Source: Halioglobus sp.
Lineage (GTDB): Bacteria; Pseudomonadota; Gammaproteobacteria; Pseudomonadales; Halieaceae
Direction: 5' to 3'
Assembly: GCA_965262875.1 (NCBI GenBank)
Contig: CBDHGD010000002.1
Coordinates: forward strand, 42,984-106,983
DNA length: 64,000 nucleotides
The notes beneath the pieces were generated by a model. It was not told the origin of the DNA and ran no database searches. It was given only the letters and a program-made list of their open reading frames with translations. The position numbers and the translations under genes were made by a program. This document shows, piece by piece, positions 2,917 to 56,210 of this stretch (its first letter is position 1; each line of letters opens with the position of its first letter).

Positions 2917-3020
2917 CAGGCCTTGTTGTCGGGATATTTTAAAAACCCTTGAGTATCCACTCATTGGTTCCAACCCCCCGTCTTCAGACGGGAGTGCTTT
3001 AGCACGAAAGAATCGGTTAT

Positions 3021-3086
3021 AGTCTTATCCTCCCTAAAAATGAGCCGCCGTAAGGAATAAGGCTCATTTTTAGGGAGGATAAGACT
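3021..3086 (+). promoter_or_regulatory. 26-bp perfect stem hairpin sequestering the tnpA ribosome-binding site
   Basis: AGTCTTATCCTCCCTAAAAATGAGCC (3021-3046) pairs with GGCTCATTTTTAGGGAGGATAAGACT (3061-3086). The right arm holds GGAGGA and ends 1 nt before the ATG, as is known for IS200 translational control. Confidence 0.7.
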
Positions 3087-3503
3087 ATGCAATATGACAC
3101 TGGGAAACACTGCGTTTTCTACCATCGCTATCACATCGTTTGGACAACAAAATATCGCTACAAGGTTCTGCGTGGGGCGGTTCAATTGCGGGTGCGTGAC
3201 ATCATCAAACAAGTTTGCAGCGAGAAAGGCGTCGATATAATCACAGGCGTCCTTTCCAGCGACCACGTTCATATGTTTGTGTCCGTTCCGCCAAAACTGG
3301 CGATCAGTGACTTGGTGCGACTTATGAAAGGACGCTCATCCCACAAAGTCCAACGCGAGTTTACACACCTGAAGAAACGCTACTGGGGCTGTCACTTTTG
3401 GGGGCGTGGGTATTTTTCAACCACCAACGGTGTGATCACAGAAGACTTCGTACTTCAGTACCTGGAAAATCACATCCCTCATCCTACCGACGCCAGTCGG
3501 TAG
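3087..3503 (+). CDS. tnpA: IS200/IS605 Y1 (HUH) transposase TnpA
   Basis: 138 aa with YHIVWTTKYR, the HUH motif SDHVHMFV, and GRGYF near the C-terminus. Confidence 0.9.
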   Translation: MQYDTGKHCVFYHRYHIVWTTKYRYKVLRGAVQLRVRDIIKQVCSEKGVDIITGVLSSDHVHMFVSVPPKLAISDLVRLMKGRSSHKVQREFTHLKKRYWGCHFWGRGYFSTTNGVITEDFVLQYLENHIPHPTDASR

Positions 3504-3533
3504 TGGTTGAGTGGTATTCATTAGAGTGCTATT

Positions 3534-4884: not shown

Positions 4885-4962
4885 AGTGCTGCGTCTTCCA
4901 TTTGCCCCGGCCAACCAGCGGGGCATCACATGCCCGGGAAACCGATCAAAAGCAACACGCTC
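4885..4962. repeat. MITE/REP-like block, short version
   Basis: Same flanks as 2808-2916, a single GGGCATCACATGCCC hairpin, TA dinucleotides at both borders. Confidence 0.7.
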
Positions 4963-6925: not shown

Positions 6926-7408
6926 ATGGCCCATCCTGATCATCACGCCGAAAGCTCGGCACGCAAGTTTGGTGGCCAGCCCTCGGACTATCACGCGGTC
7001 CATGACTGGTTCGACGCGTCCAAGGCGCATCTTGCCTCTCCGCTGCACCGGGCATTGCGCCATCACAGTGCCGGGATATTCGAAGCCGAGCGTATATTCG
7101 GGCGCGCGATTGTAAACCATGACGGGCGCTCTGTGCCGGTGCGCTTCATCGCCGAGCAGCATGTACGCGAGGATTGCCGGCGGATCCCGTCCGTGGCCGA
7201 TTGGTTGCGGCATATTCCGGTGGAGCCCTGGATGGTCAACGGGGTGATCCTGCCGGATACAGAACCGGTGGGTGCTGATCCGGACGCCGACTGGCGCGCA
7301 GCGGTGGCAGCGGGCCAGACCACATTGGGCTTGCGGGACTGGCTTTGCCAGACTGCCCTGCGTCTTAATGAGGCGATGGATCGGGAGGACAGGCTTCCAG
7401 CCGCCTGA
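6926..7408 (+). CDS. conserved hypothetical protein (small family seen on conjugative elements), full-length copy
   Basis: MAHPDHHAESSARKFGGQPSDYHAVHDWFDASK...; the start sits right after the upstream stop. Its 3' 380 bp is duplicated at 32753-33133. Confidence 0.55.
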   Translation: MAHPDHHAESSARKFGGQPSDYHAVHDWFDASKAHLASPLHRALRHHSAGIFEAERIFGRAIVNHDGRSVPVRFIAEQHVREDCRRIPSVADWLRHIPVEPWMVNGVILPDTEPVGADPDADWRAAVAAGQTTLGLRDWLCQTALRLNEAMDREDRLPAA

Positions 7409-7424
7409 CCAATCGAAAGAGCGG
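7028..7424. repeat. ~397-bp direct repeat, copy 1
   Basis: Matches 32753-33149 with 4 substitutions I could see, all synonymous in the encoded protein. Confidence 0.9.
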
Positions 7425-7428
7425 ACTT

Positions 7429-7462
7429 CCCTCTCGCAGGCATAGAAATAAGCCTTGCCGGG
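7429..7462. repeat. palindromic unit (degenerate)
   Basis: CCTCTCGCAGGCATAGAAATAAGCCTTGCCGG fits the CTCTCG-hairpin-TGCCGG pattern of the family. Confidence 0.5.
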
Positions 7463-7701
7463 GCAAGGGAGCCGCTTTTGTTCTCTTCAGCACTTCATGC
7501 TTATTAAGGCGCGCGGGCAGTTTTTTACCAGAAACGGCTGGAAATGCGGGGAAAACTGGGGCAATATCGGGCATGGCAGTGGGGTGCTTTCTGTCCAGTG
7601 TATCGGATGGCTGTTATACCATATTCTTTACACTATATCAGATGGTTACGCTACCACTGCCAGCTCAGAATCACCAATCCGATGAATAATTCGGGTTAGG
7701 C

Positions 7702-8118
7702 ATGGGTGCGGATATGCATACTGCCAGTATATTCCCATCAATGGATCGTTTGAACGAAGCGTTGACGGACACGCAAAACCGTAAGGTTTTAGCGGTGCAT
7801 CCCAGCGGCCAAAATGAGGTTTGCTTAACTATGACTGCAGCTATGTTGCGCGCATCACGTCATCTGCGTTTGTTGATCACAGGCGCCGAAAAACGTACCG
7901 CGTTGAATCGTGCTCTACGTACACAAAATGTGGCACTGGCACCGATCAAAGCGTTGATGACAACCCATAACCCCATTCAAGTTCACTTTCATATTAGGAT
8001 AAACCATGTCTATTCATCCAATACTTCAAAGCGTTACCAGCAAGATTCAAAAGCGATCAGAAGCATTGCGTACGGCCTATCTAGATCGGATGGATCAAGC
8101 ACGCAAGGACGGCCCTAA
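7702..8118 (+). pseudogene. pgl: 6-phosphogluconolactonase, 5'-truncated remnant
   Basis: Homology starts abruptly at FGLGMGADMHTASIFP (the GMGxDGHTAS motif that normally sits mid-protein), right after an in-frame TAA at 7687. The N-terminal half is absent. Confidence 0.6.
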
Positions 8119-9814
8119 GCGTGCGCATTTGACATGTGGAAACCAAGCTCACGCCTATGCCCCGATGGGGAATGATCAGGATCGTTTGATCGAAGGTCAG
8201 GCGGGTAACATCGGAATTATTACTGCCTATAATGACATGTTGTCTGCCCATCAGCCGTTCAAGGAATACCCGGATCTGATCAAAGAAGCAGCGCGCAGGG
8301 TTGGTGCTACAGCGCAAGTAGCCGCAGGCGTGCCTGCTATGTGCGATGGAATTACCCAAGGCCAGACAGGCATGGAACTATCCCTATTCAGCCGCGATAC
8401 AATTGCAATGTCTGCCGCTATTGGGCTGGCACATAATGTTTTTGACAGCACCATCTATCTGGGTGTCTGCGACAAGATTGTTCCAGGGCTTGTGATTGCT
8501 GCCGCCACATTTGGTCACTTGCCTGCGGTGTTTCTGCCAGCGGGCCCAATGACCACAGGAGTTGCCAATGACGAAAAGGCCAAAGTGCGCCAGGGTTTTG
8601 CCGAAGGCAAAGTTGATCGCGCGGCTTTAATGGCCTCTGAAATGGCCAGCTATCACGGACCTGGGACGTGTACATTTTATGGCACGGCCAACACCAACCA
8701 AATGTTGATGGAATTCATGGGTCTTCATTTGCCTGGTTCTAGCTTCGTTAACCCTAACACGCCGCTTCGCGACGCGCTTACGCAGTTTGGTGCACGCCAA
8801 GCCTTGGCAATTTCAGATCTGGGATCGCAATATACTCCCGTTGCACAGATATTGGATGCGCGTGCCTACATCAATGGTATTGTTGGGTTGATGGCAACAG
8901 GTGGATCAACAAATCTGTTAATCCACCTGCTAGCAATGGCGCGCACCAGTGGTATCATTTTGGATTGGTCAGATTTTGCTGAAATTTCCCAAGCGGTGCC
9001 CCTGTTGGCACGCGTTTATCCAAACGGGTTGGCGGATGTAAATCATTTCCATGCCGCAGGTGGTTTGGGTTTGGTTATTTCGGAATTGTTGAATGCCAAA
9101 TTGTTGCACGATGATACGCAAACCATCATGGGCAAGGGGTTGACTGAATATACAAAGGACCCAAAGTTGGTAGATGGTGAACTGGATTGGGTTGCTGGGG
9201 TCAGTGAATCCTTGAACAGCAAGATCATCGCGACCTCAGCCACCCCGTTTCAAGCGTCTGGTGGCCTTTCCAATCTGAAAGGTAATCTTGGCAGTGCCGT
9301 GATGAAAGTGTCTGCTGTGGCTGAAGAGCGCCGTATCACCAAGGCGCCCGTTCGTGTGTTTTGTGATCAGCAATCTGTGCTGGATGCGTTTCGGGCCGAA
9401 GAATTCAAATCCGATGTGATTGTCGTTGTGCGCTATCAGGGGCCACGATCAAACGGGATGCCTGAACTGCACAATCTGACGCCTTGTTTGGCGGTGCTGC
9501 AAAGGCGAGGCATTAAGGTGGCCTTGGTCACCGATGGCCGTATGTCTGGCGCATCGGGTAAAGTGCCCGCTGCCATTCACGTGGCACCTGAGGCTTTGGA
9601 TAATGGACCAATTGCCTACTTGCGCGATGGTGATATCGTAACCGTGGATGCTGTTTTGGGTGTTTTAATGGTTGAGGACGATACTATTTTTGAGCGCGAG
9701 ATTAAACATCCAGATCTGAATAATAATAACATCGGCTTGGGCCGTGAATTATTTGAAACGTTTCGCAAAAATGTGGGGCCTGCAGAAACGGGCGCTTCGG
9801 TTTTTAATTTATAG
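8006..9814 (+). CDS. edd: phosphogluconate dehydratase (Entner-Doudoroff)
   Basis: 602 aa; [36 protein letters not shown] and [10 protein letters not shown] match Edd/IlvD-family signatures. Confidence 0.95.
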
Positions 9815-9820
9815 GAAAAT

Positions 9821-10474
9821 ATGATGAGTAAAATTACACCAATCGAAGCGAGTATTAGAACTTTAGAAATCTGCGAATTAGCACCAGTTATTCCTGTGCT
9901 GGTGGTTGATGACATATCAACAGCACAAGATTTGGGAATGGCGTTGGTTCGGGGCGGATTGCCTGTCCTAGAAGTTACTTTGCGCACGGAATGTGCATTG
10001 GATGCAATCGCCGCCATGGCCAATATCGAAGGTGGTATTGTTGGGGCAGGGACGTTAATCACGCCTCAAGACGTGGAAAATGCGGTGGCTGCTGGCGCAA
10101 CTTTTGGCGTATCACCTGGCGCAACGGATACTTTGATTAAGGCCTGCGAACAAGCTGGTTTGCCACTGCTGGTAGGTGCAACATCTGCAAGCGAGGCAAT
10201 GGCACTTTTGGAACGCGGATACACTGTACAAAAGTTTTTCCCAGCCGAGGCCGCAGGCGGAGCGCCGTTTTTAAAGTCAATCGCGTCACCACTACCCCAA
10301 ATTACTTTTTGCCCAACGGGTGGTATATCATTAAACAATGCAGCTGAATATTTGGTGTCTCCAAATGTAAAATGTGTTGGTGGGTCTTGGGTCGCGCAAA
10401 AAAATGCCATCAAGGATCGCGACTGGGCCGAAATTGAACGATTGGCCAGCGAAGCAGTTAAGGTATTGTCGTGA
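9821..10474 (+). CDS. eda: KDPG/KHG aldolase
   Basis: LPVLEVTLRTE, GAGT, KFFPAE and FCPTGGI motifs. Confidence 0.9.
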   Translation: MMSKITPIEASIRTLEICELAPVIPVLVVDDISTAQDLGMALVRGGLPVLEVTLRTECALDAIAAMANIEGGIVGAGTLITPQDVENAVAAGATFGVSPGATDTLIKACEQAGLPLLVGATSASEAMALLERGYTVQKFFPAEAAGGAPFLKSIASPLPQITFCPTGGISLNNAAEYLVSPNVKCVGGSWVAQKNAIKDRDWAEIERLASEAVKVLS

Positions 10475-10647
10475 GCAAAGACGTTCGTATTTTCTGGCAA
10501 ACCTTGCAGGATGATTGGGCACGTTTACGCTCCATTCATTTGCGCGATTTGTTTAAGATCGTCGCACTCATTTTGCCTCCCTTGGACCACCATGTCAGCG
10601 CAGGCTGTTGGTGCGACCGTTGTCAGAAAAAATTAGACGTAAGTTGA
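10471..10647 (+). pseudogene. pgi: possible glucose-6-phosphate isomerase N-terminal stub
   Basis: A GTG overlapping the eda stop, then W..L....W..L..IHLRDLF, which resembles a Pgi N-terminus for about 28 codons before it diverges and stops. 58 codons, below the track threshold. Confidence 0.4.
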
Positions 10648-29582: not shown

Positions 29583-29722
29583 ATAAAATAAATGCACCTC
29601 TGTCGAGACTTTTATCAGACAATTGTCGATAACATGGGATATGACCGCTTTATGGTAACTGCCCAGGTACCCTAAGGAATAATTCTCTTGCCTGAGGAAT
29701 CCCGATGTGATTCATTAAGATT

Positions 29723-30014
29723 ATGATTTTTTCAAACGCACCCAAAGGTTATGTTTCCGTTGAGGCTTATGAAGAGCTGAAGCAGAAGAATGCACAAACG
29801 ATAGCCCTGCTTGTGGCTCGCATTGAAGACCTTGAGCGTCGCCTCAGCTTGAACAGCAGCAACAGTAGCAAGCCGCCTTCAAGCGACGGCCTAAAGAAGC
29901 CCAAGGCTGAACCCAGAACCAAAAGTCTGCGGAGAAAATCCGGTAAAAAGTCAGGCGGGCAGAAAGGCCACAAGGGAAGCACCCTGTGCCAAACGGCAGA
30001 TCCCGATCATGTTG
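29723..30014 (+). pseudogene. IS66-family transposase, N-terminal 97 codons
   Basis: ...LNSSNSSKPPSSDGLKKP...GGQKGHKGSTL is typical of the IS66 TnpC N-terminus. The frame then runs into the inverted copy. Confidence 0.75.
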
Positions 30015-30467
30015 TTCCCCACAGTGGCCGCAAAGGCAGACATGTGCCCTGTGTTCCGTTGTCACCAGGGGTTGTGGCTCGGGCAGGTCAAACACCTGTC
30101 GTGCGGCGTAATCCTCTGCCATTGATGGCGACAGCGGTGTGCCACATTGCCCGCAGACAGAAGGAAAGTGATCTTCAACATGATCGGGATCTGCCGTTTG
30201 GCACAGGGTGCTTCCCTTGTGGCCTTTCTGCCCGCCTGACTTTTTACCGGATTTTCTCCGCAGACTTTTGGTTCTGGGTTCAGCCTTGGGCTTCTTTAGG
30301 CCGTCGCTTGAAGGCGGCTTGCTACTGTTGCTGCTGTTCAAGCTGAGGCGACGCTCAAGGTCTTCAATGCGAGCCACAAGCAGGGCTATCGTTTGTGCAT
30401 TCTTCTGCTTCAGCTCTTCATAAGCCTCAACGGAAACATAACCTTTGGGTGCGTTTGAAAAAATCAT
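30015..30467 (-). pseudogene. IS66-family transposase, N-terminal ~151 codons
   Basis: Same N-terminus, continuing through ...CGQCGTPL...RQVFDLPEPQPLVTTEHRAHVCLCGHCGE (zinc-finger region) up to the junction at 30015. Confidence 0.75.
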
Positions 30468-30535
30468 AATCTTAATGAATCACATCGGGATTCCTCAGGC
30501 AAGAGAATTATTCCTTAGGGTACCTGGGCAGTTAC

Positions 30536-32559: not shown

Positions 32560-32752
32560 AGGTCTTGACTTATGTCTAGAATTGTGGGGGGGGGGTATTT
32601 CTATACATATCCAAAGCTTCCTTTTTGCGTCTTTCCCTAAGCTTTAGGTCAAAAATATCCGTTAGGCAACAAGCTAGGGTAATCAATTGAATGGTTTTTG
32701 GCTTGAAAATTGGAAGAAAACGTAACTGCCGGAGGCTTCCGCGTTGAATTCA

Positions 32753-33133
32753 CATCTTGCCTCTCCGCTGCACCGGGCATTGCGCCATCACAGTGCCGGG
32801 ATATTCGAAGCCGAGCGTATATTCGGGCGCGCGATTGTAAACCATGACGGGCGCTCTGTGCCGGTGCGCTTCATCGCCGAGCAGCATGTACGCGAGGATT
32901 GCCGGCGGATCCCGTCCGTGGCCGACTGGCTGCGGCATATTCCGGTGGAGCCCTGGATGGTCAACGGGGTGATCCTGCCGGATACAGAACCGGTGGGTGC
33001 TGATCCGGACGCCGACTGGCGCGCAGCTGTGGCAGCGGGCCAGACCACATTGGGCTTGCGGGACTGGCTTTGCCAGACTGCCCTGCGTCTTAATGAGGCG
33101 ATGGATCGGGAGGATAGGCTTCCAGCCGCCTGA
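32753..33133 (+). pseudogene. 5'-truncated duplicate of the 6926-7408 gene
   Basis: Encodes the last 126 residues identically; there is no upstream coding continuation. Confidence 0.8.
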
Positions 33134-34080: not shown

Positions 34081-34461
34081 ATGAAACTTCTGACCAAAAC
34101 CCACCGTATGCAACTGCTCGCCAACGGGCGCACTATGGCGCAGGCGGATATTTCCGGAACCGTAAAACCGGTTGTTAAACTGTTCATGCCGGATGGCGGG
34201 GCCACGTGGCTGCTGGCCTGGTTGGAACCGGAGGATCCTGATATCGCTTTTGGACTCTGCGATTTGGGCCTAGGTTGCGCTGAACTCGGCACCGTCACCT
34301 TAAGCGAGATTGCCAACTTGCGTGGGGTCTTGGGTCTGCCGCTTCTCGGGCATGTAATACCCTTCCAGCCAATGGTCGAGCGTGATCGCTTTTTCAAGGC
34401 GGATCGCAGCCTGTCTGATTATGCCAAAGTGGCCCGTGACGCAGGCTATATTGCCGCCTGA
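34081..34461 (+). CDS. DUF2958-domain protein carrying an 11-codon palindromic-unit insertion
   Basis: PVVKLFMPDGGATWLL...AFGLCDLGLGCAELGTVTLSEI...GLP[LLGHVIPFQPM]VERDRFF. Confidence 0.75.
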   Translation: MKLLTKTHRMQLLANGRTMAQADISGTVKPVVKLFMPDGGATWLLAWLEPEDPDIAFGLCDLGLGCAELGTVTLSEIANLRGVLGLPLLGHVIPFQPMVERDRFFKADRSLSDYAKVARDAGYIAA

Positions 34462-34672
34462 CACAGACCACTAACACAGACACGGAGACATGGGCGCGGG
34501 GCTGGCATCAGCGGTCCCGCGTTCATCCACGCCAGATTGCAACCATCAGTCTTTTCCGGCCCCGTCATCGCTTCCCGACAACTGTCGCGCCCGGCTCCCT
34601 AAAGAAAAGAGCGGGGCTTTTGGTTTTTGTGATTCCAATGGGGGATCGAGAAACACAAAATGGAGAAACACG

Positions 34673-36079
34673 ATGACCACCCAAAATATGAACACCCTGC
34701 TGAGCGATTGCCGGATTGCCCTGAACAAGCTGACCCTGCATCCGCGCAACGTGCGGGCCGGCAGTATTACGGCCTATGCGGCGGCGGCGATCACACCGCT
34801 GGCGGCCAATATCGCCCTGCGCGGCTTGCTGCAACCGCTCGTGGTGCAAAAGCTTGAGGATGGCACTTACGGCGTTGTTGGCGGTGGCCGCCGTCTGGCC
34901 GCGCTCAAGACACTGGCGGAAGATAAAGCCGCCAAAGGCTTCGGGAAATCCATGAAAGTGGCCTGTCGGGAGATGTCCGGCGACGAGGTTGCGCTGTCCA
35001 CCGTGAGCTATTCGGAGAATGCGTTGCAACTGCCGATGGATGCGCTGGATCGCTATGAGGCGTTTGCCGCGATGCGCGATCAGGATGGTGCAAGCATTGA
35101 TCTGATCGCGCGCAGTTTTGCGATTACAGAACGGCAGGTGAGGGAAGCCCTGCGTCTGGGCAATATCCACGTCGATATCCGCGATGCGCACCGATCCGGT
35201 CAAATCAACCTTGAAGCCTTGCGGGCGTTCGATGCGCACCCGGATCCAGAGGTGCAGCTGGAAACCTTCACCGGTCTCGCACAGGAACACGGGGCTGTCA
35301 CATCCTGGCAGGTGCGCCAAGCGTTTCAAAACCGCTGGGTGCGGGTTGGCGATGCGGTTGGCGCGTTTGTGCGCGAAGCTTATATCGCCGCAGGGGGCGA
35401 GGTTCTGGCCGATCTGATCGAGGAGGACAGTATTCTGGCCGACAACAGCCTGATCACCAAACTGCTGGCCGAAGACCTTCAGGCGCGCGCGGAGGCAGAA
35501 CGGGCGCGGCTTGGCTTTGCCTGGGCGGAATATCGCACAGAAGCCCGCCGGGACAGTTTCAGCGATTACGGGCGGCTCTATCCTGAGGCGCTTGATCTCG
35601 ATGACGCCACGCAAGCCAGGGTGGATCAATTGACCGAAGAGTTGGATGCGATCAGTGCAGACTATGAAGCGTCCCCGGATGCCGAGGCCGAAGCCGCACT
35701 TGAGGCCCGTCACGCGGTGCTTGAGGCGGAGATCGATGCGTTGACGCAAGGCTACAGCGCAGGCGATCTGGGGCTTGGCGGTGTTATCGCGGTCTGGGAC
35801 CGGTGCGAGGTGAAGTTTTTTGGCGGCATGGTACGGCCGGAACAAATGCCGGATCGCAATACGGACGATCAGGTCGGGTCCGGGGACGGCACCACGGCCA
35901 ATACCGCACCGGACACAGCTGTCGGGCCAAAGCTGTCTGCCAAGCTAGCGGGCGATATGGCACATATCCGTACAAGGGCTGTGGGGCTGGCCCTGGCGTA
36001 ATCGCCCGAAGTGGCGGGCGATTACGCCTGCTATACGCTGATCCGTCAGGTTCTGGGGGATTGGAACTATAGCAATGCG
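34673..36079 (+). pseudogene. ParB/Srx-like N-terminal domain protein, 5' part (nonsense codon, then transposon interruption)
   Basis: LHPRNVR...GGGRRLAALKTL ParB box. An in-frame TAA at 35999-36001 is followed by 26 more open codons up to the insertion point. Confidence 0.7.
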
Positions 36080-36150
36080 CCCCTATGTAGCAAACGCACC
36101 AAAGGAGGCTAATAAATGACTCCACAATATGGGCAATCTGTGATCTTTTC

Positions 36151-37032
36151 ATGTTCATGTTCAATTTTTACAAGGCTTGTTTTTCTAAAGCGTTTTCTGG
36201 AAAATTCTGGATGGTTGAAAAGTGGACGGGTGGTTTATCTATACTTGCTCTCGTTTTTACACGGCTATTGCCAACGCCAGAGTGGATGGCGACAATGTTA
36301 GAAACAGACGGCCCACTATATTTTTTCTTGGTAATATTCGTCCTTACGGTTTTCTTGGGCTTAGTTGCCGCGCCTTATGCACTTTACAAAGAGCAGTTAG
36401 ACGCGCGTATTGAGAGCGAAGCGAAAAGAAAACCGACCCTTAATGTTTTTCTAAAAAATTCTACTTCTTCAGACGTTTTGCGTGGTGCTACTTCTCAAGC
36501 ACTTTCTGGGAGTAGACAAACTGTAATTACTAATTCAATTCCGAGTGTTTTAAGTGTTACCTGTAAAAATACAGGCGAAACCAAAGCATTAAACTGTGTC
36601 GCCAGAATAGTATCTGCAAAGCAAGTAGACGCAGAGCCAGACAGAGTTTTAGACATAACAGAATCTATAATCCTACCTTGGGATCAGTGTGATCCAGAAA
36701 AAAGCTTAACCAAAGATATGCCCCCAAGTGATATATCCAGAATTTGGATTGCCAGTATCAATGCCAGCGGCCACTTGTGGATTTTTAGGGAAACTGGGAA
36801 ACTTCCAGTGGAATACCAAAGGTTTTTCGGATCTGCTGGAAAATACGAAGTTATTATACAGATTGACTCAGACAACTGCCCACCAATCCAGACAATGATC
36901 CGCATGATTTCACGTGAATATGAAGGCACTGGGAGTGGTGTACATAAGGGCGAAGGGGAGATTTCTATTTTATCACAAGGCTCTCCACGCCTACCGCCCC
37001 CGGACTCAACCACTACCGACTGGCGTCGGTAG
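36151..37032 (+). CDS. hypothetical membrane protein (2 N-terminal TM helices + beta-rich domain); last 6 codons come from IS200
   Basis: LSILALVFTRLL and LYFFLVIFVLTVFLGLVAAPYAL hydrophobic helices; no motif recognised. The frame runs into the IS200 end at 37014. Confidence 0.45.
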   Translation: MFMFNFYKACFSKAFSGKFWMVEKWTGGLSILALVFTRLLPTPEWMATMLETDGPLYFFLVIFVLTVFLGLVAAPYALYKEQLDARIESEAKRKPTLNVFLKNSTSSDVLRGATSQALSGSRQTVITNSIPSVLSVTCKNTGETKALNCVARIVSAKQVDAEPDRVLDITESIILPWDQCDPEKSLTKDMPPSDISRIWIASINASGHLWIFRETGKLPVEYQRFFGSAGKYEVIIQIDSDNCPPIQTMIRMISREYEGTGSGVHKGEGEISILSQGSPRLPPPDSTTTDWRR

Positions 37033-37429
37033 GATGAGGGATGTGATTTTCCAGGTACTGAAGTACGAAGTCTTCTGTGATCACACCGTTGGTGGTTGAA
37101 AAATACCCACGCCCCCAAAAGTGACAGCCCCAGTAGCGTTTCTTCAGGTGTGTAAACTCGCGTTGGACTTTGTGGGATGAGCGTCCTTTCATAAGTCGCA
37201 CCAAGTCACTGATCGCCAGTTTTGGCGGAACGGACACAAACATATGAACGTGGTCGCTGGAAAGGACGCCTGTGATTATATCGACGCCTTTCTCGCTGCA
37301 AACTTGTTTGATGATGTCACGCACCCGCAATTGAACCGCCCCACGCAGAACCTTGTAGCGATATTTTGTTGTCCAAACGATGTGATAGCGATGGTAGAAA
37401 ACGCAGTGTTTCCCAGTGTCATATTGCAT
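37013..37429 (-). CDS. tnpA: IS200/IS605 Y1 transposase TnpA
   Basis: 138 aa, identical to 3087-3503. Confidence 0.9.
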   Translation of the reverse strand: MQYDTGKHCVFYHRYHIVWTTKYRYKVLRGAVQLRVRDIIKQVCSEKGVDIITGVLSSDHVHMFVSVPPKLAISDLVRLMKGRSSHKVQREFTHLKKRYWGCHFWGRGYFSTTNGVITEDFVLQYLENHIPHPTDASR

Positions 37430-37567
37430 AGTCTTATCCTCCCTAAAAATGAGCCTTATTCCTTACGGCGGCTCATTTTTAGGGAGGATAAGACTATAAC
37501 CGATTCTTTCGTGCTAAAGCACTCCCGTCTGAAGACGGGGGGTTGGAACCAATGAGTGGATACTCAA
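37014..37567 (-). mobile_element. IS200/IS605-family element, copy B (inverted relative to copy A)
   Basis: Identical to 2949-3512. Confidence 0.85.
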
Positions 37568-38321
37568 CCATAAAAGCCGCGCTAAACTTACCACGCGATA
37601 GCTTATTGCGAATATTTGCCTCTTTATCTCCGATTAATTCAGACAACTGGGCATATGTAAGGGCATGTCGTCCGTGCAGTTCTCGCGCGTTCTAAACGTC
37701 CAGTACAAAACGGCTTGGGTTATGGCGCACAAATTACGCGAGGCTTTAGGTGCCGAAGTTCAGAATACAGAGTTAAACGGTGAAGTTGAAATTGACGGGG
37801 CATATTTTGGTGGTCACATCAAACCCGCCAATGAAAAGGTAAACCGTGTTGATCGCCGTAAGAAAGAACACCAAACGGGCCTGAGACGCGTTGTAATCGC
37901 CCTGCGTGAGCGTAAGGGCCGTACACTGACCTTTATCCGCAAAAGCGAACAAGAGGGCGTAGAAATCGCAAATGAGGTTGTTGACCAAGACGCTATGATG
38001 TTTGCAGACGAAGCAACCCACTGGGACGCACTGGACGATACGTTTGAATGTGGCCGCATTAACCACAGTGAGCGTTATTCTGAAATGAATGGTAAGCACA
38101 CAAATTGGGTTGAAAGCTATTTCAGCCGCCTACGTCGCATGGTGCAAGGCCAGCACCACTTTGTATCGCCTAAGTACCTACACCAGTACGCAACACATGC
38201 TGCGTGGTGTGAAGATCATCGGTTGGAGGATAACAAGGTTTTGACGTTCCGCGCGTTGCGGAGTGCCTTGTTTTCGCCAGTTAGCGGCAACCTAAAGGGT
38301 TATTGGCAGAAGGTCACCTAA
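37568..38321 (+). pseudogene. IS1595-family (ISXO2-like) transposase, N-terminus lost and frameshifted
   Basis: SSVQFSRVLNVQYKTAWVMAHKLREAL...GEVEIDGAYFGG...NHSERY...NWVESYFSRLRR. The zinc-ribbon N-terminus is missing, with the IS200 abutting at 37567. There is a stop at 37635 and an apparent frameshift near 37650. Confidence 0.7.
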
Positions 38322-38384
38322 TAACCATCATTGAATATTTCAAATAATGAACTATATTAGTGGTACGCAGGAGAGTAAAAAACC

Positions 38385-38828
38385 ATGAAAAACAGTGAAA
38401 CTGTTGCAAACAAGTTTGTTGAGCTTGCTGCGCTAGCAGATGAGTCCCTTACACCTATGCAGATTCTAAAATTAACTTATATTGCTCATGGATGGATGCT
38501 TGGATTATACAAGAGACCTTTAATTAAAGATGAAGTTCAGGCTTGGCAGTATGGCCCTGTAATTTCTACTTTATACAACAAACTTCGAAACTATCGAAGT
38601 GCACCAGTCTTACGTATAGTCCCCTATGGAGACGAAACTCTCGATGAAAAGGAGGCCAATATAGTCAAACAAGTTTATGATAAATATGGCCATCTTAGCG
38701 GGCCAGCCCTATCAAGGCTAACACATGCAAAGGATACCCCTTGGGATTTGATTTACGAAAAGGGTAGTTTCGGCTTGGTCATATCAAATGACCTAATAGA
38801 AGATCATTACGCGAGCATGTCTAATTGA
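38385..38828 (+). CDS. Panacea/DUF4065-domain protein (SocA/PanA-like antitoxin)
   Basis: LTPMQILKLTYIAHGWMLGLYKRPLIKDEVQAWQYGPVISTLY matches the DUF4065 core (KL.KL.Y...G...w.yGPV). Confidence 0.75.
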   Translation: MKNSETVANKFVELAALADESLTPMQILKLTYIAHGWMLGLYKRPLIKDEVQAWQYGPVISTLYNKLRNYRSAPVLRIVPYGDETLDEKEANIVKQVYDKYGHLSGPALSRLTHAKDTPWDLIYEKGSFGLVISNDLIEDHYASMSN

Positions 38829-39217
38829 GTGAAGATGATGATATTAATAAGAAAATTCCAGATCAAACCCCTGATATGGATGCCGCAAGGGGTCGTCGAG
38901 ACAAGCGGGGTACCGCAGAATCCAAGCAACTCTCAAGTGGAAAATCTGCAAACGAAATAAAAACTGAGGCAGAGCAGGCAGAAGCTGATAGAACTGAAAA
39001 GTTCCGCAATCATTTTGAGTGTCTAGCTATAATAACGTTATACATTGTTTGGGTAAGTATTGTTATTGTTGGACTCACTTGGCTCTATCACCTAATTGCT
39101 CCGCCCTGCTGGCCCAGACTGCCAGATGAGCAGGTTGGTAATATTCAAGCAATTGTTACGGGTGGTATTATTGCTGGAATTGCTGGTGGACATATGAAAA
39201 AACGTTTAAACCAATAA
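38825..39217 (+). CDS. putative membrane toxin partner (2 C-terminal TM helices)
   Basis: TTG start overlapping the upstream stop. Charged N-terminal half, then LAIITLYIVWVSIVIVGLTWLYHLI and AIVTGGIIAGIAGG. The start codon is uncertain. Confidence 0.45.
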   Translation: MSEDDDINKKIPDQTPDMDAARGRRDKRGTAESKQLSSGKSANEIKTEAEQAEADRTEKFRNHFECLAIITLYIVWVSIVIVGLTWLYHLIAPPCWPRLPDEQVGNIQAIVTGGIIAGIAGGHMKKRLNQ

Positions 39218-39559
39218 CCACAACCCACCCTCACTAGCCCAAGCCCCACGCTTTACCCCACCTGACAAAGCCACATGCACTGACATGCGAAGCCCTTCAT
39301 GGCTAACACCTTTGGCTTTCCCAACATAAGCAACAACCTCTGGCCCCGCCTTAGGCCCATCACGCAATGCCTTTGCAATGTATCGGGATAACTCACCACG
39401 CTTAAACACGCGCGGCCTGTACTGCCTGATAAGCTGATTGTCTGGGTTATAGCCCTTTTGCAGTAGCAGGGCGTTGATATGCTCAAGCCCCGCCTGATCG
39501 CCTCGTATGGCTTCTAGGCGCATGTGCAATAACATACTTATAATGGAACTATCTTTCAT
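39206..39559 (-). CDS. hypothetical protein at the right end of the insertion
   Basis: ORF only; no motif recognised. Confidence 0.25.
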   Translation of the reverse strand: MKDSSIISMLLHMRLEAIRGDQAGLEHINALLLQKGYNPDNQLIRQYRPRVFKRGELSRYIAKALRDGPKAGPEVVAYVGKAKGVSHEGLRMSVHVALSGGVKRGAWASEGGLWLLV

Positions 39560-39627
39560 GGTGGTAATTTACTTGATTAACACCGCAAAAGCGTCAGGAA
39601 ACTTGGTGCGTTTGCTACATAAGGCCG

Positions 39628-40272
39628 TAGCAATGCGACCAGCCTGCGTGCAGATGTGGCCAGTCGGGGACCAGACGAGGTGAGTGGCTCGCTGGCGCAG
39701 ATCGAGGAGGTGTTAGCAACGCTGCGGGACGGGCTGGAGCTTGACTGGATCGAGATCGAGGGTGCGGACGGGTTTGCCACATTCCGGGCATTGCCTGAGG
39801 GATCCCGCGCGGATCTTCTGGCCTATGCGGTGGCGCAGACGCTGGAACCGAAGCTGGTCACGGAGTTGCGCGATCCGGTGCGCGAGACGGTCGAGATCGC
39901 GGTTCTGCCCAACCTGCGCGCTGTCTGGACGCTCGACGCGGCGTTCCTGAAGCGTCTGGCCAAATCAGACCTGCTGGAAATCCTGCGTGATATGGATATG
40001 CGCACCGAGGCGCAGACCTACCAAAAGGCGAAGAAGACAGGGCTTGTGAGCTATATGGTCAAGTTGTTTGCCGAACCCTTTGCCACGCTGACCGATCGCC
40101 AACGTCAGGCCGTCAACAGCTGGTGTCCGTCGGTGATGATGGCCGCGCTGCCAACGGAAACCCGCCGTTCCGAGCGTCAGGTGCAATTGCAACAATTCTC
40201 AACCCCGCTGGATCTGGCGTTTATCGTGGCCATGGCAGCGCGGATCACAAAGGCGGATGTGGTGCTGGACCC
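39628..40272 (+). pseudogene. ParB-like gene 3' part, running into a short N6-methylase-like N-terminal fragment
   Basis: The frame continues from the duplicated SNA codons. It ends with QFSTPLDLAFIVAMAARITKADVVLDP, which resembles the TP..LA.....D.VLEPSAG start of the methylase/helicase genes of conjugative elements. Confidence 0.6.
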
Positions 40273-41894
40273 GCGCCTTCATGGCGGGCGAAAAAGCCAT
40301 CCTGATTTTCTCGGATGCAGGTGGCACCGGACGCTCCTACCATGCGGCAGCTGGCGGGTCATCCACTGTGGGGTCATCCACTGCCTCGGCAGGGCTTGCT
40401 TGCAAGCGCCGTCGGACTGGCAGGGCCAAACTGGCCCGAGAAGTCGAGAGAGGGGCAGACGGGTCATCAGCCGGGGCCACAACCCCGAAACGGCGGCGGC
40501 ATTATCTCATGGAACCGGGCTGGCGGGCGGATGCGGCGATCCAGGGGCTGGGGCGCACCCATAGGGCGGCGCAGGTCTCGGCGCCGCATTTCCGGGTTTG
40601 CACGACGGATGTGCACGGCGAAAAACGCTTTACCTCGACCATTGCGCGGCGGCTCGATACATTAGGCGCGCTCACCAAAGGCCAGCGCGAAACTGCCTCG
40701 CAGGGCATGTTCCGGGCCAGTGACAATCTGGAAAGCCCGATTGCGCGGGCCTGCCTGCGCAGTCTCTACAGCGATATTGTGCGCGGCGAGGCCGTGAACC
40801 CACGGAACGGCGATACGCTGACCTATGAGACATTCTGCGACTGGACGGGATTGAGGCTGGTCACACGCGAGGGCGCGCTGTTGGAAGAACTGCCGCCAAT
40901 CCAGCGGTTTCTCAACCGGGTGCTGGCCTTGCCGATTGCGCTGCAGAATGCGGTGTTCTCTGCACTGATGGAAAAGATCAATCTGGCTTTAGCCCGCGCA
41001 CGCGATGCGGGGCGGCTGGATGTCGGGCTTGAAACCTTGCGCGGCGACCGGATTACGGCGGGCGCGGCACAGGAATTGCGCTGTTGCGAGACCACAGGAG
41101 CCATCACATCGCTGGTGCCGGTCAAGGTGGAACAGCGCCGGAGCTATCTTTCTGCGGCGGCGGTACTGGAGCAGCATCCATCGCTGACACCGATGCAGAA
41201 TACCGCCAGTGGCGCGGTGGCACTGGTCAGCCCGCGCCCGCGTCAGGTGTTTGACGAGGCGGGCGGGGTTGGCTTTGAACGGCGCATTATTCGTCCGACG
41301 GGCAGCGGGTTTATCGAAGAGCAGCAACTCACCCGCTCCAACTGGGAAGATGTGGACAGCGCGGCATTCCGTAAGCTCTGGGATGCGCAGGTGGCGGAGT
41401 TGCCCGAGATGGAAGTCACCGAGCTGCATCTGCTGACCGGGCTGATCCTGCCGATCTGGAAGCAGATCCCGGGGCAGAACACCCGGATTTACCGCGTGCA
41501 GCCCGAAAGCGGCCCGGCGTTGCTGGGGCGCGCACTTGATGCCGGTCAGGCGGCGGTTTTGCGCGGGCGGTTCATGGATCTGGCGGTGGCGACGCCGGAA
41601 GAGATGCTTGCCGTGGTGATTAGCACGGACCGGGCGGTGGAGCTCGGCGCGGGTCTCAGCCTGAAACAACGCCGTGTGGCGGGGTAAAAACGGCTGGAAC
41701 TGACAGGGGCAGGGACAGCAGAAATGGCCTGGCTGAAATCTTTGGGCTGCTTTACCGAAATCCACCAGTACCAGCTGCGGCTGTTTGTGCCGATGGATGA
41801 CCCGGCAGCCGATGACCCGGCAGCCGATGACCCGGTTTCCGATGAGAATGCGGCGCTGCGGATTGTGACCGAAATCGTGGCCCGGCAGGCTTGA
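40257..41894 (+). pseudogene. Strawberry-notch (Sno)-type helicase, C-terminal third only, with in-frame insertions and a premature TAA
   Basis: GEKAILIFSDAGGTGRSYHA ... RRRHYLMEPGWRADAAIQGLGRTHRAAQVSAPHF ... GEKRFTSTIARRLDTLGALTKGQR. An in-frame TAA lies at 41685-41687, followed by 69 more open codons. Confidence 0.75.
41796..41835 (+). repeat. 15-bp tandem repeat x2.7 (GATGACCCGGCAGCC)
   Basis: Read directly; encodes DDPAA DDPAA DDP. Confidence 0.85.
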
Positions 41895-41931: not shown

Positions 41932-42210
41932 TCAGCAATCTCCTCTTCTGGCCGGACGCGCGGTCACGCCCGGCTCGACAGGGTCGATTATGACAACGGG
42001 ACTGGCCTCACCGCAGTGCCGGCAGTGTATTCCGGCCTGGAAACAGCCGATGGTGGTGGCGCTGCCAAGCTGTTTGATCAGGTCGGAAACGCGCAGGGTG
42101 GCACGGCGGCAGCAGGCAGTTTCTCGGGCCAGTTGGCCCTGTCAACCAGCGGGGCACTCCAGGCGCAGATCGCCACCAGGCAGGTCGCGGAGCTGTGTAT
42201 CGGGGGTCAT
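41932..42210 (-). pseudogene. small zinc-ribbon paralog P2, interrupted by a palindromic unit carrying an in-frame TGA
   Basis: MTPDTQLRDLPGGDLRLEC[PAG*QGQLARETA]CCRRATLRVSDLIKQLG...CRHCGE. Its start overlaps the P1 stop (ATGA). Confidence 0.4.
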
Positions 42211-42458
42211 TGATGCACCACCGTGTCAAGATGAATATCGAATTGTCTGGAGCCGTTGCATTTGCGGCACCGGATTCTGGCAATCACATCGCTGACTGCC
42301 GCGCCATGGCCAAGCCTGTGTATCAACTCCTGAACCGGAAATTTGGCGCTGTGTCCGCAATCGCGGCATTGGATCGCGAGGCTGTGGCTGGAAATCATTG
42401 TCAGCAGTGTGCCGTGTTTTATCATCTGCCTTCCGTGCCCTTTCTGCCGCGCATTCAA
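42207..42458 (-). CDS. small zinc-ribbon protein P1 (CxxC...CxxC)
   Basis: ...LAIQCRDCGHSAKFPVQELIHRLG...IRCRKCNG; paralog of 47164-47451. Confidence 0.5.
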   Translation of the reverse strand: MNARQKGHGRQMIKHGTLLTMISSHSLAIQCRDCGHSAKFPVQELIHRLGHGAAVSDVIARIRCRKCNGSRQFDIHLDTVVHQ

Positions 42459-42564: not shown

Positions 42565-42620
42565 CCTTGCAGAACTGGCCTTGCAGAACTGGCCTTGCAG
42601 AACTGGCCTTGCAGAACTGG
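42565..42620 (+). repeat. 14-bp tandem repeat x4 (CCTTGCAGAACTGG) inside ardC copy 1
   Basis: Read directly. The three extra copies add 42 bp, which stays in frame. Confidence 0.9.
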
Positions 42621-44138: not shown

Positions 44139-44177
44139 CAGGATGGGCGGCGCGATGTGACCAGCGCCGCCCGTTAA

Positions 44178-44221
44178 AGTTGAACGACTTTTCTTTGAGA
44201 CCAAAATTAAGTCGTTCAACT
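44178..44221. repeat. short (internally deleted) copy of a MITE with GTTGAACGACTT termini
   Basis: AGTTGAACGACTT-N18-AAGTCGTTCAACT. Confidence 0.6.
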
Positions 44222-45677: not shown

Positions 45678-45790
45678 AGTTGCGCGACTTTTCTTTGATA
45701 TCGTATCTCCTGCGCTTTTTCAGAGACCGCATATGCATCAGCTTGTGCATTCCGGGAAAGCGCGGGAGGCTAAACTTAAGTCGTTCAGCT
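45678..45790. repeat. full-length copy of the GTTGAACGACTT-type MITE
   Basis: Collinear with 55909-56083 except for the palindromic-unit insert present there. Confidence 0.6.
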
Positions 45791-45889
45791 CTGGCATGCC
45801 GCCGCAGGATCATCCTTCCATTTTGGCAACTGGATTGTTCTCTTGTGCGGGAACGGTCCTTTCGGGCTGACGGGTTTCCAGGGGCAGAC

Positions 45890-46104
45890 ATAGGTCGCCC
45901 TGCCCCGTAGGACTGACAGATACCGTAATGGGGCTTGGCCTCGCCGCAGTGCCGGCAGCGTATTCCAGCTTGAAAATAGCCAAGCGTGATGGCACTTCCA
46001 AGCTGTTTGATCAGGTCGGAAAACCGTTGGCCCTGTCAACCAGCGGGGTACTCAAGGCGTAGATCGCAATCAGGAAAGGCTCTGATCTGTGTATCGGGGG
46101 TCAT
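45890..46104 (-). pseudogene. zinc-ribbon paralog P3, same interruption as P2
   Basis: MTPDTQIRAFPDCDLRLEYPAG* ... SDLIKQLGSAITLGYFQAGIRCRHCGE. The end is uncertain. Confidence 0.3.
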
Positions 46105-46252
46105 TGTTTTGCCGCTCCGTGAGGGGTGTCGTTCAGGATGTGTGCAACATCAACATGGCACAAAAAACGCCGCAAGTAATGCTTACGGCGTTTTTCTAAA
46201 GTCACGGATGCACAGCTTCACTTGTTTTGTGTGGCTACGCGTTGCGTTTGCT

Positions 46253-46922: not shown

Positions 46923-47100
46923 CTCTCGACTTCTCGCACATGTGATGCGCCATTGGCCGGCAGGGCCAACGGGCTTTTCGACTTCTCGCGCATGTGATGC
47001 GCTGCCAGTCCAATAGGGTATGTGATGCCCTGCCATCCCAACGGGCCCGAGAGGCTGCCAGTCCAGCGGAGCATGAAATGCCCCGCTGGTTGGCAGGGTC
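46923..47100. repeat. array of four palindromic units
   Basis: GCACATGTGATGCGC, GCGCATGTGATGCGC, GGGTATGTGATGCCC and GGAGCATGAAATGCCCC, each with CTCTCG/TTCTCG leaders and TGCC...CCARYGG tails. Confidence 0.8.
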
Positions 47101-47163
47101 GGCTTGCCGTTTACCGGATCATGTGGCTACAGTCTCTGAATAGATCATAAGGGAAAAGCACAG

Positions 47164-51738: not shown

Positions 51739-51963
51739 ATGACCCATAAATATTACAATGTTTGTATCGCCACCACAGGCAAAGACGACAAAACCTACTT
51801 CACCAAAGTCGGCGCGGCGTTTCCCGGCAAAGACGGCAGCAAAGCCATCATGAACATCAAACTCGATGCCCATTCCCTCAACGGCGAATACGTCCTCTTT
51901 GCCTCTCGGGCATGTAATGCCCTGTCGGCCAGCGGCACCCAAAACCAAAACCGGCAACGATGA
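51739..51963 (+). CDS. small hypothetical protein with a palindromic unit in its 3' part
   Basis: MTHKYYNVCIATTGKDDKTYFTKVGAAFPGKDGSKAIMNIKLDA...; unit at 51902-51935. Confidence 0.35.
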   Translation: MTHKYYNVCIATTGKDDKTYFTKVGAAFPGKDGSKAIMNIKLDAHSLNGEYVLFASRACNALSASGTQNQNRQR

Positions 51964-53482: not shown

Positions 53483-53962
53483 ATGTCAGAGAAACGCAAG
53501 AGGCTGCCAAGCCGACGCCCGTCCGAAGTGCGTAAAATCAAGATGCAGAATGGCCAGTCATTATATGTGACTTTGGGATATGACCCCATGGTTCCGGATG
53601 CGCCAAAAGAAGTGTTTTATGATCGCGGGTTTCGGGAGGGCGCAGAGTTGCAATTCATCGCCAACGATATGTGCATCATGATCTCTTTGCTGTTGCAGGC
53701 GGGGTATACAGCCAAGGATATTTCCAAGTCGCTTTCAAAAACCACTGTGGAAACGCCAACGGGTTTCTCGACTTCTCGCGCATCACATACCCGAGAAGCT
53801 GCCAACCCAACGGCTGAGGTGTCACAGCACGGCTCGATCGTAGGGTTGATCGTGGAGCAACTACAGATTGCCCCGTCATGGATGAAGGAAGCCGGGAACC
53901 GCACCGGCATCAATGCCGATGTACATAAAGCGATTACAGGAGGTCATCATGCAAGATTATAA
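53483..53962 (+). CDS. hypothetical protein (TSCPD-like N-terminal pattern, weak) with a palindromic unit in frame
   Basis: RLPSRRPSEVRKIKMQNGQSLYVTLGYD...EVFYDRGFREGAEL...MISLLLQAGY. Unit at 53764-53813. Confidence 0.35.
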   Translation: MSEKRKRLPSRRPSEVRKIKMQNGQSLYVTLGYDPMVPDAPKEVFYDRGFREGAELQFIANDMCIMISLLLQAGYTAKDISKSLSKTTVETPTGFSTSRASHTREAANPTAEVSQHGSIVGLIVEQLQIAPSWMKEAGNRTGINADVHKAITGGHHARL

Positions 53963-54602: not shown

Positions 54603-54926
54603 CATGCGCGGCGTCCAGTGCGGTTTTGCCGGACGTAAACGCATTGGGCCAGGTGACTGTCTTGCGTTGTTGTTTCAAAATATAGTTGACCTCAAGGGTC
54701 CAGTCAAAGGTATCTGCGGGTCTGCTGATACTGATGAAGGCCGGGCCTTTTTTGTCATGAGCAGAGTTTCATACGGGCTGAATTCGATTTCGTCTGTCAT
54801 AGGGTTGAACGCCTCAATTCCGGTCTCGTGTGCATTTTTCCCGGAATGCACAAGCTGTCATATGTGGTCTCTAAAAAGATTTATCACAGGCCTTCAAAAT
54901 GTCAAAGAAAAGTCGTTCAACTTTAC

Positions 54927-55908: not shown

Positions 55909-56083
55909 ACCTGCACGACTTTTCTTTGATATCATATCTTATGTGCTTCGCTGGACTGACAGCCTCTCGGGCTGGTTGGCCCTGCCGGCCAATGGCGCAT
56001 TTCATGCGCGAGAAGTTCAGAGACCGCATATGCGTAGCTTGTGCATTCCGGGAAAGCACATGACCAAAATTAAGTCGTTCAGC
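55909..56083. repeat. GTTGAACGACTT-type MITE copy carrying a nested palindromic-unit insert (55950-56015)
   Basis: Collinear with 45678-45790 on both sides of the 66-bp insert. Confidence 0.6.
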
Positions 56084-56088
56084 AATAG

Positions 56089-56210
56089 TTGGCAGTTTCT
56101 CGGGCCCATCGGACTGACAGCGCATCACATGCGCCGCTGGACAGTCAGTTTCTCGGGCCCGTTGGGATGGCAGCGCATCACATGCGCGAGAAGTCGAGAG
56201 CCCGTTGGCG
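56089..56210. repeat. array of two palindromic units
   Basis: Two copies of GGCAGTTTCTCGGGCCC...CAGCGCATCACATGCGC. Confidence 0.8.

Follow-up and report, generated by a model that had tools for sequence, protein, structure and literature searches.

Results

A palindromic repeat unit lies in frame within a DUF2958 gene

The 64-kb stretch of DNA analysed here (Halioglobus sp., contig CBDHGD010000002.1; hereafter the window) has the backbone of a plasmid or an integrative and conjugative element, with a ParB-like gene, a DUF2958 gene, a remnant of a strawberry-notch helicase gene, two ArdC genes, HU, ProQ/FinO and many insertion sequences. Our subject is a short palindromic repeat inside the DUF2958 gene (Table 1). 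The product of this open reading frame (ORF) matches the Pfam family PF11171 (DUF2958) with an E-value of 3e-35 (121 bits; gathering cut-off 21), and since its residues 3-124 span only positions 1-110 of the 111 in the profile, the protein exceeds the Pfam model by about 12 residues. A homology search with the protein returned 7945 relatives, the nearest of which without the insert, leaving aside the identical entry, has 115 aa, that is, 126 minus 11.

The additional residues, LLGHVIPFQPM (residues 88-98), are encoded by the 33 nt at 34342-34374 and sit between the near-invariant G85-L86-P87 and E100-R101-D102. An earlier note on this DNA had described a palindromic unit inserted in frame at this place, and its coordinates, sequence and host gene proved exact. 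In alignments of 24 and 109 sequences, exactly these 11 residues are missing from all orthologues but one (P0002, described below), and the closest orthologues, which are 79-86% identical, lack exactly the 11 codons; presence of the residues in orthologues elsewhere, which the note had named as the sign of an ancestral sequence, was not observed. At the DNA level, the empty allele L002 reads TTGCCG followed directly by GTCGAGCG, and the window reads CTGCCG, then CTTCTCGGGCATGTAATACCCTTCCAGCCAATG, then GTCGAGCG, so that the frame is kept on both sides; the 33 nt are likewise missing from the empty alleles L003 and L004. The bond that received the insert thus joins CCG (Pro87) to GTC (Val) in the GLP|VERD segment. 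No target duplication was found in the alignment of empty and occupied DNA, in which the boundary is ambiguous by 1 nt owing to a shared G.

The 126-aa protein is identical on three contigs, and a one-residue variant occurs on a contig from another sample (L055). Independent contigs from different samples thus carry the insert, which rules out an artefact of assembly. Searches of a plasmid database in near and distant modes with the DUF2958 region found no close relative and only weak backbone matches, at about 72-76%, to plasmids of Rhodobacterales and Methylobacterium, and a literature search on DUF2958 returned nothing relevant and no published function.

In an AlphaFold model of the protein built with 109 sequences (mean predicted local distance difference test, pLDDT, 88; predicted template modelling score 0.82), the insert falls in a low-confidence loop. 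The pLDDT lies below 50 for residues 85-92 and averages 51 and 62 in the blocks 81-90 and 91-100, compared with about 89-98 in the remaining blocks. Coil is predicted for the insert region, flanked by a short helix on one side and the VERD strand on the other, which is compatible with a tolerated surface loop. Searches of the PDB by sequence and by fold gave no match for the DUF2958 domain and hence no functional setting for the place of insertion.

The insert belongs to a family of hairpin-bearing repeats

When the window was scanned for CTCGGGCATGTAATRCCC, the 18 nt around the hairpin, with no more than 3 mismatches, 9 matches appeared where 0.15 are expected. In this family a unit measures about 33-36 nt: the leader CTTCTCG is followed by a 6-3-6 hairpin of the form G[G/C/A]GCAT-NNN-ATGC[C/G/T]C and then by some 14 nt of linker (CTGYCRGNCAAYGG / CTGCCAGYCCAAYGG), which can be turned either way. 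Units are arranged in four ways, as solo units, inverted dimers, minimal leader-hairpin-trailer copies and arrays. The stems among 46 unique units comprise GGGCAT/ATGCCC (18), GCGCAT/ATGCGC (12), GGGCCA/TGGCCC (4) and GAGCAT/ATGCTC (2); the screen demanded at least 5 of 6 paired positions, which limits how far these counts speak for compensation. Since the stem variants are mostly doubly compensated, we argue that the hairpin itself is the conserved part.

The earlier note called the DUF2958 copy a canonical palindromic unit. Its membership in the family is borne out by the scan, but it is not a good palindrome: its stem contains a C.A mismatch, and the hairpin, with a DNA folding energy of -0.9 kcal/mol (z +0.36), folds no better than shuffled sequence. 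The copy is therefore a palindromic unit by ancestry and not by present structure, and it looks like a decaying copy.

The family is a small, non-coding, hairpin-bearing repeat without coding capacity of its own and resembles repetitive extragenic palindromic (REP) sequences, bacterial interspersed mosaic elements (BIMEs) and REP doublets forming hairpins (REPINs). Rfam gave no match over the whole window, and searches for literature on REP, REPIN or MITE (miniature inverted-repeat transposable element) families in Roseobacter and Rhodobacterales found nothing relevant; in the papers that can be searched, the family seems to be undescribed.

In a genome scan with one genome per species, the unit pattern was concentrated on contigs from two metagenome-assembled genome (MAG) assemblies labelled Candidatus Poriferihabitaceae and Pseudohongiella, and the related plasmid-like contigs contain tens of copies. 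Segments of these contigs match the window at 91-99% identity, and, like the window plasmid, the contigs carry intergenic arrays and inverted dimers of the family. We do not vouch for the binning of these MAGs, because the backbone genes resemble those of Rhodobacterales plasmids. One contig (L017, 1045-1121) has a 77-nt block of family units that is missing from the 94-96% identical L015, which, judged from the sequences, indicates growth or shrinkage of an array by whole units.

Three alleles at the DUF2958 site

The exceptional orthologue P0002 (locus L001, from another metagenome) has 23 extra residues, or 69 nt, at the identical bond. These 69 nt are the 33-nt unit of the window plus a 36-nt unit, CTTCTCGGGCCAGTTTGGCCCTGACAGCCCAATGGG, nested in the first after CTTCTCGG, so that units evidently add to units. 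The site therefore shows a series of 0, 33 and 69 nt, all three alleles being open reading frames. The hairpin of L001 is perfect, with ATGCCC where the window has ATACCC.

The shared 33 nt are identical at 32 of 33 positions between the window and L001, compared with 79% in the gene flanks (binomial p ~0.004); this comparison is free of the bias of exact-pattern searches described below. L001 resembles the empty allele L002 (86.5%) more than it does the window, and the window is nearer to the empty L003 and L004 (81%). The two occupied copies share two derived traits, the 33-nt length and a linker with TTCC in place of TGCC, and they therefore stem from one event.

A sister copy is polymorphic among near-identical relatives

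The earlier note had pointed to a close match at 51902-51934, and indeed the DUF2958 unit matches 51901-51931 at 84%. This second solo unit is absent in L007, L014 and L024, whose flanks are 98-99% identical, and present in L011. Since a 34-nt unit is present or absent among relatives this similar, its gain or loss is recent. Comparison of empty and occupied sites revealed no target duplication. The unit shifts the frame, changing the tail of its host, an unrelated 74-aa ORF, from FAPKTKTGNDDVVE to FASRACNALSASGTQNQNRQR, and frame preservation is therefore not built into the element. Pfam found no family for the 74-aa ORF, with or without the unit; an impression of likeness to DUF736 was unconfirmed.

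Units interrupt transposon genes

A metagenome scan for the subfamily with a GTAAT loop gave 25 loci. Of these, 18, together with the genome locus L022, carry the unit at one site in an IS5-family transposase gene (19 loci; Table 1). This 34-nt unit, CCTCTGGCTGGCAGGGCATTACATGCCCGAGAAG, lies antisense between ...QVQRKGY and RN.PLS... and shifts the frame. The protein rebuilt without it has 335 aa, the exact length of hundreds of uninterrupted relatives, which are up to 97% identical, and L052-L054 show the empty site GGCTAC|CGCAAC. Likewise, taking out 34 nt restores OrfB of an IS3 element in L048 (RRGNCH|DNAVAESFF; rve plus rve_2) and Orf2 of an IS66 element in L030 (KRLEDQ|LFTWP). L037 has about 70 nt of family sequence in an IS110-type gene, which by eye looks like an inverted dimer. 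At the defined sites in IS5, IS3 and IS66 genes no target duplication was found; the hosts are marine metagenomes and MAGs. The IS5 and IS66 units are antisense to their host genes; those in DUF2958, IS3 and the 74-aa ORF are sense.

The unit-bearing IS5 genes have a ratio of nonsynonymous to synonymous divergence (omega) of 0.05-0.2 in both halves at a synonymous divergence (dS) of 0.7-1.7, despite the frameshift, and the interrupted gene of L045 is closest to the uninterrupted L052. This pattern, which resembles that at DUF2958, is suggestive. We withdrew the idea that the unit is hyper-conserved in IS5 genes, since the 34/34 identities were partly a product of the exact-pattern search; a protein-based search gave variable unit-coded tails (PLVGRALH, PLAGRVLH, PLAGRALY, PLADRALHAGE). 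We also rejected codon pairs for a ribosomal hop seen by eye, TAC...TAC in IS5 and CAC...CAT in IS3, for which the chance expectation is roughly 1 in 6. In P0249, an IS5-family protein from a metagenome of the Joint Genome Institute (JGI), a secondary indel has brought the unit in frame (...RKGYPLAGRALHDREAQKPMSVKDRRRND...); on its sequence, this appears to be a second case of a unit becoming coding sequence, with the same outcome as in DUF2958.

Table 1. Host gene, insert and family copies in the window, and loci with units in transposon genes.
Feature	Position or loci	Strand	Basis or remark
DUF2958 gene hosting the insert	34081-34461	+	126 aa; ORF list, Pfam PF11171
33-nt solo unit CTTCTCGGGCATGTAATACCCTTCCAGCCAATG	34342-34374	+	leader CTTCTC(G), hairpin, linker TTCCAGCCAATG
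Degenerate 6-3-6 hairpin GGGCAT-GTA-ATACCC, C.A mismatch	34348-34362	+	sequence
Second solo unit, 34 nt, GCCTCTCGGGCATGTAATGCCCTGTCGGCCAGCG	51901-51934 (boundaries +/-2 nt)	+	3' end of 74-aa ORF 51739-51963
Inverted dimer with terminal inverted repeats TTTCTCGGGC...GCCCGAGAAA	2848-2899	-	DNA fold -15.7 kcal/mol, z -4.6
Partial copy of the 2848-2899 element, 30-nt flank in common	4894-4945	-	repeat comparison
Unit with hairpin variant GGGCCA-NNN-TGGCCC	40396-40447	-	inside 342-nt junction in strawberry-notch region
Family unit at 39-nt indel (42110-42148) between paralogous segments	42117-42166	+	repeat comparison
Intergenic array (leader, hairpin, linker, hairpin, linker, trailer, ...)	46923-47108		repeat comparison
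Minimal leader-hairpin-trailer copy CTTCTCGCGCATCACATACCCGAGAAG	53768-53813		repeat comparison
Second intergenic array, opposite in orientation to that at 46.9 kb	55944-56200		53-nt tandem pair at 56093 and 56146
IS5 loci with unit	L022, L027-L029, L031-L036, L038-L040, L043, L045, L047, L049-L051
IS3 loci with unit	L048, L008, L044, L046		two units in L046

Other features of the window

An IS200/IS605-type element of 564 nt is present in two identical inverted copies (2949-3512 and 37004-37567), with a TnpA of 138 aa (Y1_Tnp, E-value 2e-40). Both copies are preceded by TTGAG and end in GGTTGAG, and a family dimer is 50 nt away from the first. Downstream of DUF2958, the ParB-like gene appears to be split at 36078-39628 by an insert of about 3.5 kb that carries one of these copies; L004 5057-6761 corresponds to 34374-36078 and L004 6753-7264 to 39628-40139 of the window. 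At 40139-40481, 342 nt including a family unit replace about 3.3 kb of the strawberry-notch helicase gene that the related locus L004 has (7264-10628), and the repeats may mark junctions of deletions or rearrangements. The paralogous segments 41998-42212 and 45931-46106 are about 85% identical, differ by the 39-nt indel listed in Table 1 and have no convincing ORF assigned.

A second, unrelated palindromic repeat, AGTTGAACGACTT...AAGTCGTTCAACT, occurs at 44175-44221, 45768-45792, 54900-54925 and 56062-56086, the first copy being a 47-nt indel relative to L004. The window also contains a 360-nt perfect inverted repeat (29655-30014 and 30176-30535, 161-nt spacer), a 14-nt sequence, CCTTGCAGAACTGG, four times in tandem at 42565-42620 with related 28-mers at 7329 and 33054, a 300-nt direct repeat upstream of DUF2958 (7015-7314 and 32740-33039, 97% identical, 25.7 kb apart) and, near its start, a perfect AT-rich 55-nt direct repeat (84-138 and 1100-1154, 1 kb apart).

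Discussion

Our comparison places the element among small palindromic repeats that occasionally turn coding, and other bacteria are known to have similar intragenic events. It works like a REP/BIME unit: it shares with REP, BIME and REPIN sequences a unit of 20-40 nt, a compensated hairpin, mostly intergenic copies and occasional intragenic ones (PMC3733652). As expected of such repeats, it is a many-copy imperfect palindrome, in this case a 15-nt 6-3-6 hairpin in a unit of about 34 nt with 9-10 copies in the 64 kb, and it forms mosaic clusters of direct and inverted units with linkers (46923-47108 and 55944-56200). It differs from the REPs associated with REP-associated tyrosine transposases (RAYTs), which carry a GTAG or CGTC tetranucleotide at one hairpin end (PMC3733652), in that its units begin with CTTCTCG. 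Moreover, REPs are chromosomal and vertically inherited, whereas the family described here is plasmid-borne and common to several replicons.

The earlier note compared the insert with the Rickettsia palindromic elements (RPEs), which are about 100-150 bp long and typically lie in frame within genes (PMC10969869; Ogata et al. 2000 as summarised there and in PMC3733652). The likeness is real, since in both cases a short palindromic repeat sits in a protein gene, the frame is kept, the gene stays open and the extra peptide is predicted in a loop. As an analogy the comparison thus holds; membership does not, and size and frame set the two apart. The units here have 33-36 nt, and four of the five defined gene insertions, all of 34 nt, shift the frame, whereas RPEs are mostly in frame. 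Furthermore, RPEs reside in Rickettsia chromosomes, whereas the units here are hosted by plasmids and insertion sequences from marine and sponge-associated bacteria. The note also knew of no such pattern on plasmid backbones of this group. The family and its occurrence in this host gene indeed appear to be undescribed, but the phenomenon itself is not new: intragenic repeats of the REP type have been catalogued for several bacteria (PMC3733652), and ERIC and other repeats have copies inside genes, with known fusions of ORFs (PMC10969869).

With MITEs such as Correia/NEMIS, ERIC and RUP, the family shares its non-autonomous nature and a dimer with terminal inverted repeats, which are present in the 52-nt dimer form and absent from solo units of 33-34 nt. 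The units are, however, well under the usual MITE size of 70-300 bp, and no target-site duplication beyond the 1-nt ambiguity was found at the five defined sites. IS200/IS605 elements insert 3' of a fixed 4-5-nt target; at the five sites no fixed target was found, and the ends of the resident IS200 copy are unrelated to those of the units. What the units have in common with these elements is hairpin-based, seamless insertion without duplication, and a Y1 transposase gene is present in the window. Peel-and-paste transposition of IS200/IS605 elements is seamless, makes no duplication and allows precise excision (PMC5027513); by analogy, precise excision would explain the patchy presence of the units. 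Finally, mobile bypass inserts of the T4 gene 60 type (bioRxiv 10.1101/2022.08.31.505936) and the mitochondrial "byps" of yeast (PMC5009743) are likewise short hairpin inserts within genes, whose hosts are under purifying selection even when frame-shifted. In contrast to these, our units are found in either orientation, and there are close alleles without an interruption; the sole indirect signal of bypass would be the low omega on either side of the frame-shifting IS5 unit. In sum, the element differs from RPEs in size and frame, from RAYT-associated REPs in the tag, from MITEs in the lack of a duplication and from an IS200 derivative in the lack of a fixed target.

The insertion, its family membership, the lack of a target duplication, the allele series and the recent polymorphism of the sister copy are direct observations. 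Beyond them, we read the 33 nt, with a probability of roughly 0.8, as a solo monomer of a REP/BIME-like hairpin family that was inserted without target duplication, kept the frame and is now translated as the loop LLGHVIPFQPM. A unit would have entered the GLP|VERD bond of the plasmid gene without duplicating the target, and because its length is a multiple of three and the segment tolerates a loop, the gene stays open and the insert is translated. We infer that an enzyme recognising the hairpin mobilises the unit in trans, in the form of a folded DNA single strand. HUH/Y1 transposases (RAYT or IS200 type) would be the leading candidates, given the seamless insertion and precise excision of peel-and-paste transposition (PMC5027513), and the Y1_Tnp gene that occurs twice in the window counts in favour of this class. 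Selection on DUF2958 function would then keep only frame-preserving versions, and the stem mismatch would mark the DUF2958 copy as decaying and probably immobile. Both DUF2958 alleles with units (33 and 69 nt) are in frame and the four other defined insertions are not, so that the in-frame state appears to be an exception kept by selection or chance and not a property of the family.

Several points weigh against this reading. Two in-frame alleles have a chance of about 1 in 9 without any selection. The motifs on either side of the insert are the two most conserved in DUF2958, so that the function of the protein may be impaired, and the loop is a predicted one. We could link no enzyme to the repeat family: the only Y1 gene of the window belongs to an ordinary IS200-type element, no RAYT-like gene was seen beside units in the window, and the GTAG or CGTC tag is absent in the 46 unique units. 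The five insertion sites (GCC^GGTC, TGC^GGTA, CAC^GATA, TTT^GCAC and ACAA^CTGA) have no convincing common motif on either strand by eye, which counts against mobilisation of the IS200 type because that would predict one target. The resident IS200/IS605 element was rejected as mobiliser: neither its ends nor its TTGAG target resembles the units, and no unit adjoins its second copy. Lastly, a simple history of one old insertion followed by drift predicts neither a unit so much more conserved than its flanks nor an L001 nearer to the empty L002 than to the window. A young insertion carried onto diverged backgrounds by very short conversion tracts would fit, and the DUF2958 alleles are visibly mosaic in the DNA comparison; precise loss of the unit in other lineages or constraint on the DNA of the unit would fit as well.

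The main rival, unlikely though not negligible, is that the unit was copied in by an accident of replication or repair, such as template switching or filler DNA at a break, with the plasmid arrays as template and no dedicated enzyme. Five sites with neither target duplication nor common motif would be expected from such an accident, as would solo copies without the right-hand trailer GCCCGAGAA of the dimer form and the one-base microhomology (G) at most junctions; arrays that could have served as template lie 12-22 kb away on the same replicon. However, independent solo insertions in five genes are alike, each with 33-36 nt comprising the leader, one hairpin and one linker, whereas random switches would give ragged lengths, and the compensated stem variants imply that the hairpin is recognised. 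That the 11 residues are ancestral to the DUF2958 lineage and were lost elsewhere, or that they are an assembly artefact, can practically be dismissed: its only support is that two alleles share the insert. Against it, over 100 orthologues, the closest among them, lack exactly these codons, the DNA is that of a dispersed repeat family, and the insert occurs on separate contigs from different samples.

A further alternative, which we regard as quite improbable, makes the unit a functional DNA or RNA signal under selection, be it an inverted repeat bound by a protein, a stimulator of ribosomal bypass or frameshifting, or a switch that can be excised seamlessly. Such a role would account for a unit more conserved than its gene between the window and L001 (32/33 compared with 79%, p ~0.004). 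In its favour, too, presence of the unit does not track the gene tree in either DUF2958 or IS5, omega stays at 0.05-0.2 (dS 0.7-1.7) in both IS5 halves despite the frameshift, and a 6-3-6 inverted repeat resembles the kind of site that a dimeric protein binds. Yet units lie in either orientation relative to their host genes, uninterrupted IS5 copies 97% identical are common and show that the unit is dispensable, the IS5 tails vary with the 34/34 identity partly made by the search, and the hairpin of the window itself is mismatched. Each site also has its own linker variant, which fits a single insertion per site followed by hitch-hiking. A bolder version, rather unlikely in our view, is that the unit of about 34 nt is a hairpin cassette, seamlessly excisable or bypassed by the ribosome, that prefers genes of mobile elements and acts as a reversible switch; its hosts would be IS5, IS3 and IS66 genes, DNA within an IS110-type gene and plasmid backbone genes. 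If true, it would explain the tree-independent presence, the 97% versus 79% conservation at DUF2958 and the IS5 omega near 0.1 on both sides.

On our preferred reading of a solo REP/BIME-like monomer turned coding, the DUF2958 locus is a clean natural case of a tiny repeat adding a peptide loop to a conserved protein, with a 0/33/69-nt series at one phosphodiester bond in a gene family widespread on conjugative plasmids and integrative elements. For genome annotation, the units yield spurious frameshifts and altered C-termini, as in the 74-aa ORF and the split IS5 and IS3 genes. The family is common to plasmid-like contigs of two MAGs, one of them labelled as a sponge-symbiont family, and to insertion sequences of marine Rhodobacterales. 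Since its insertions are seamless and polymorphic among near-identical plasmids, it offers a tractable system for studying how REP-like units without a GTAG tag are mobilised. Moreover, its recurrent location in transposase genes raises the question of whether such units damp or reversibly switch other mobile elements.

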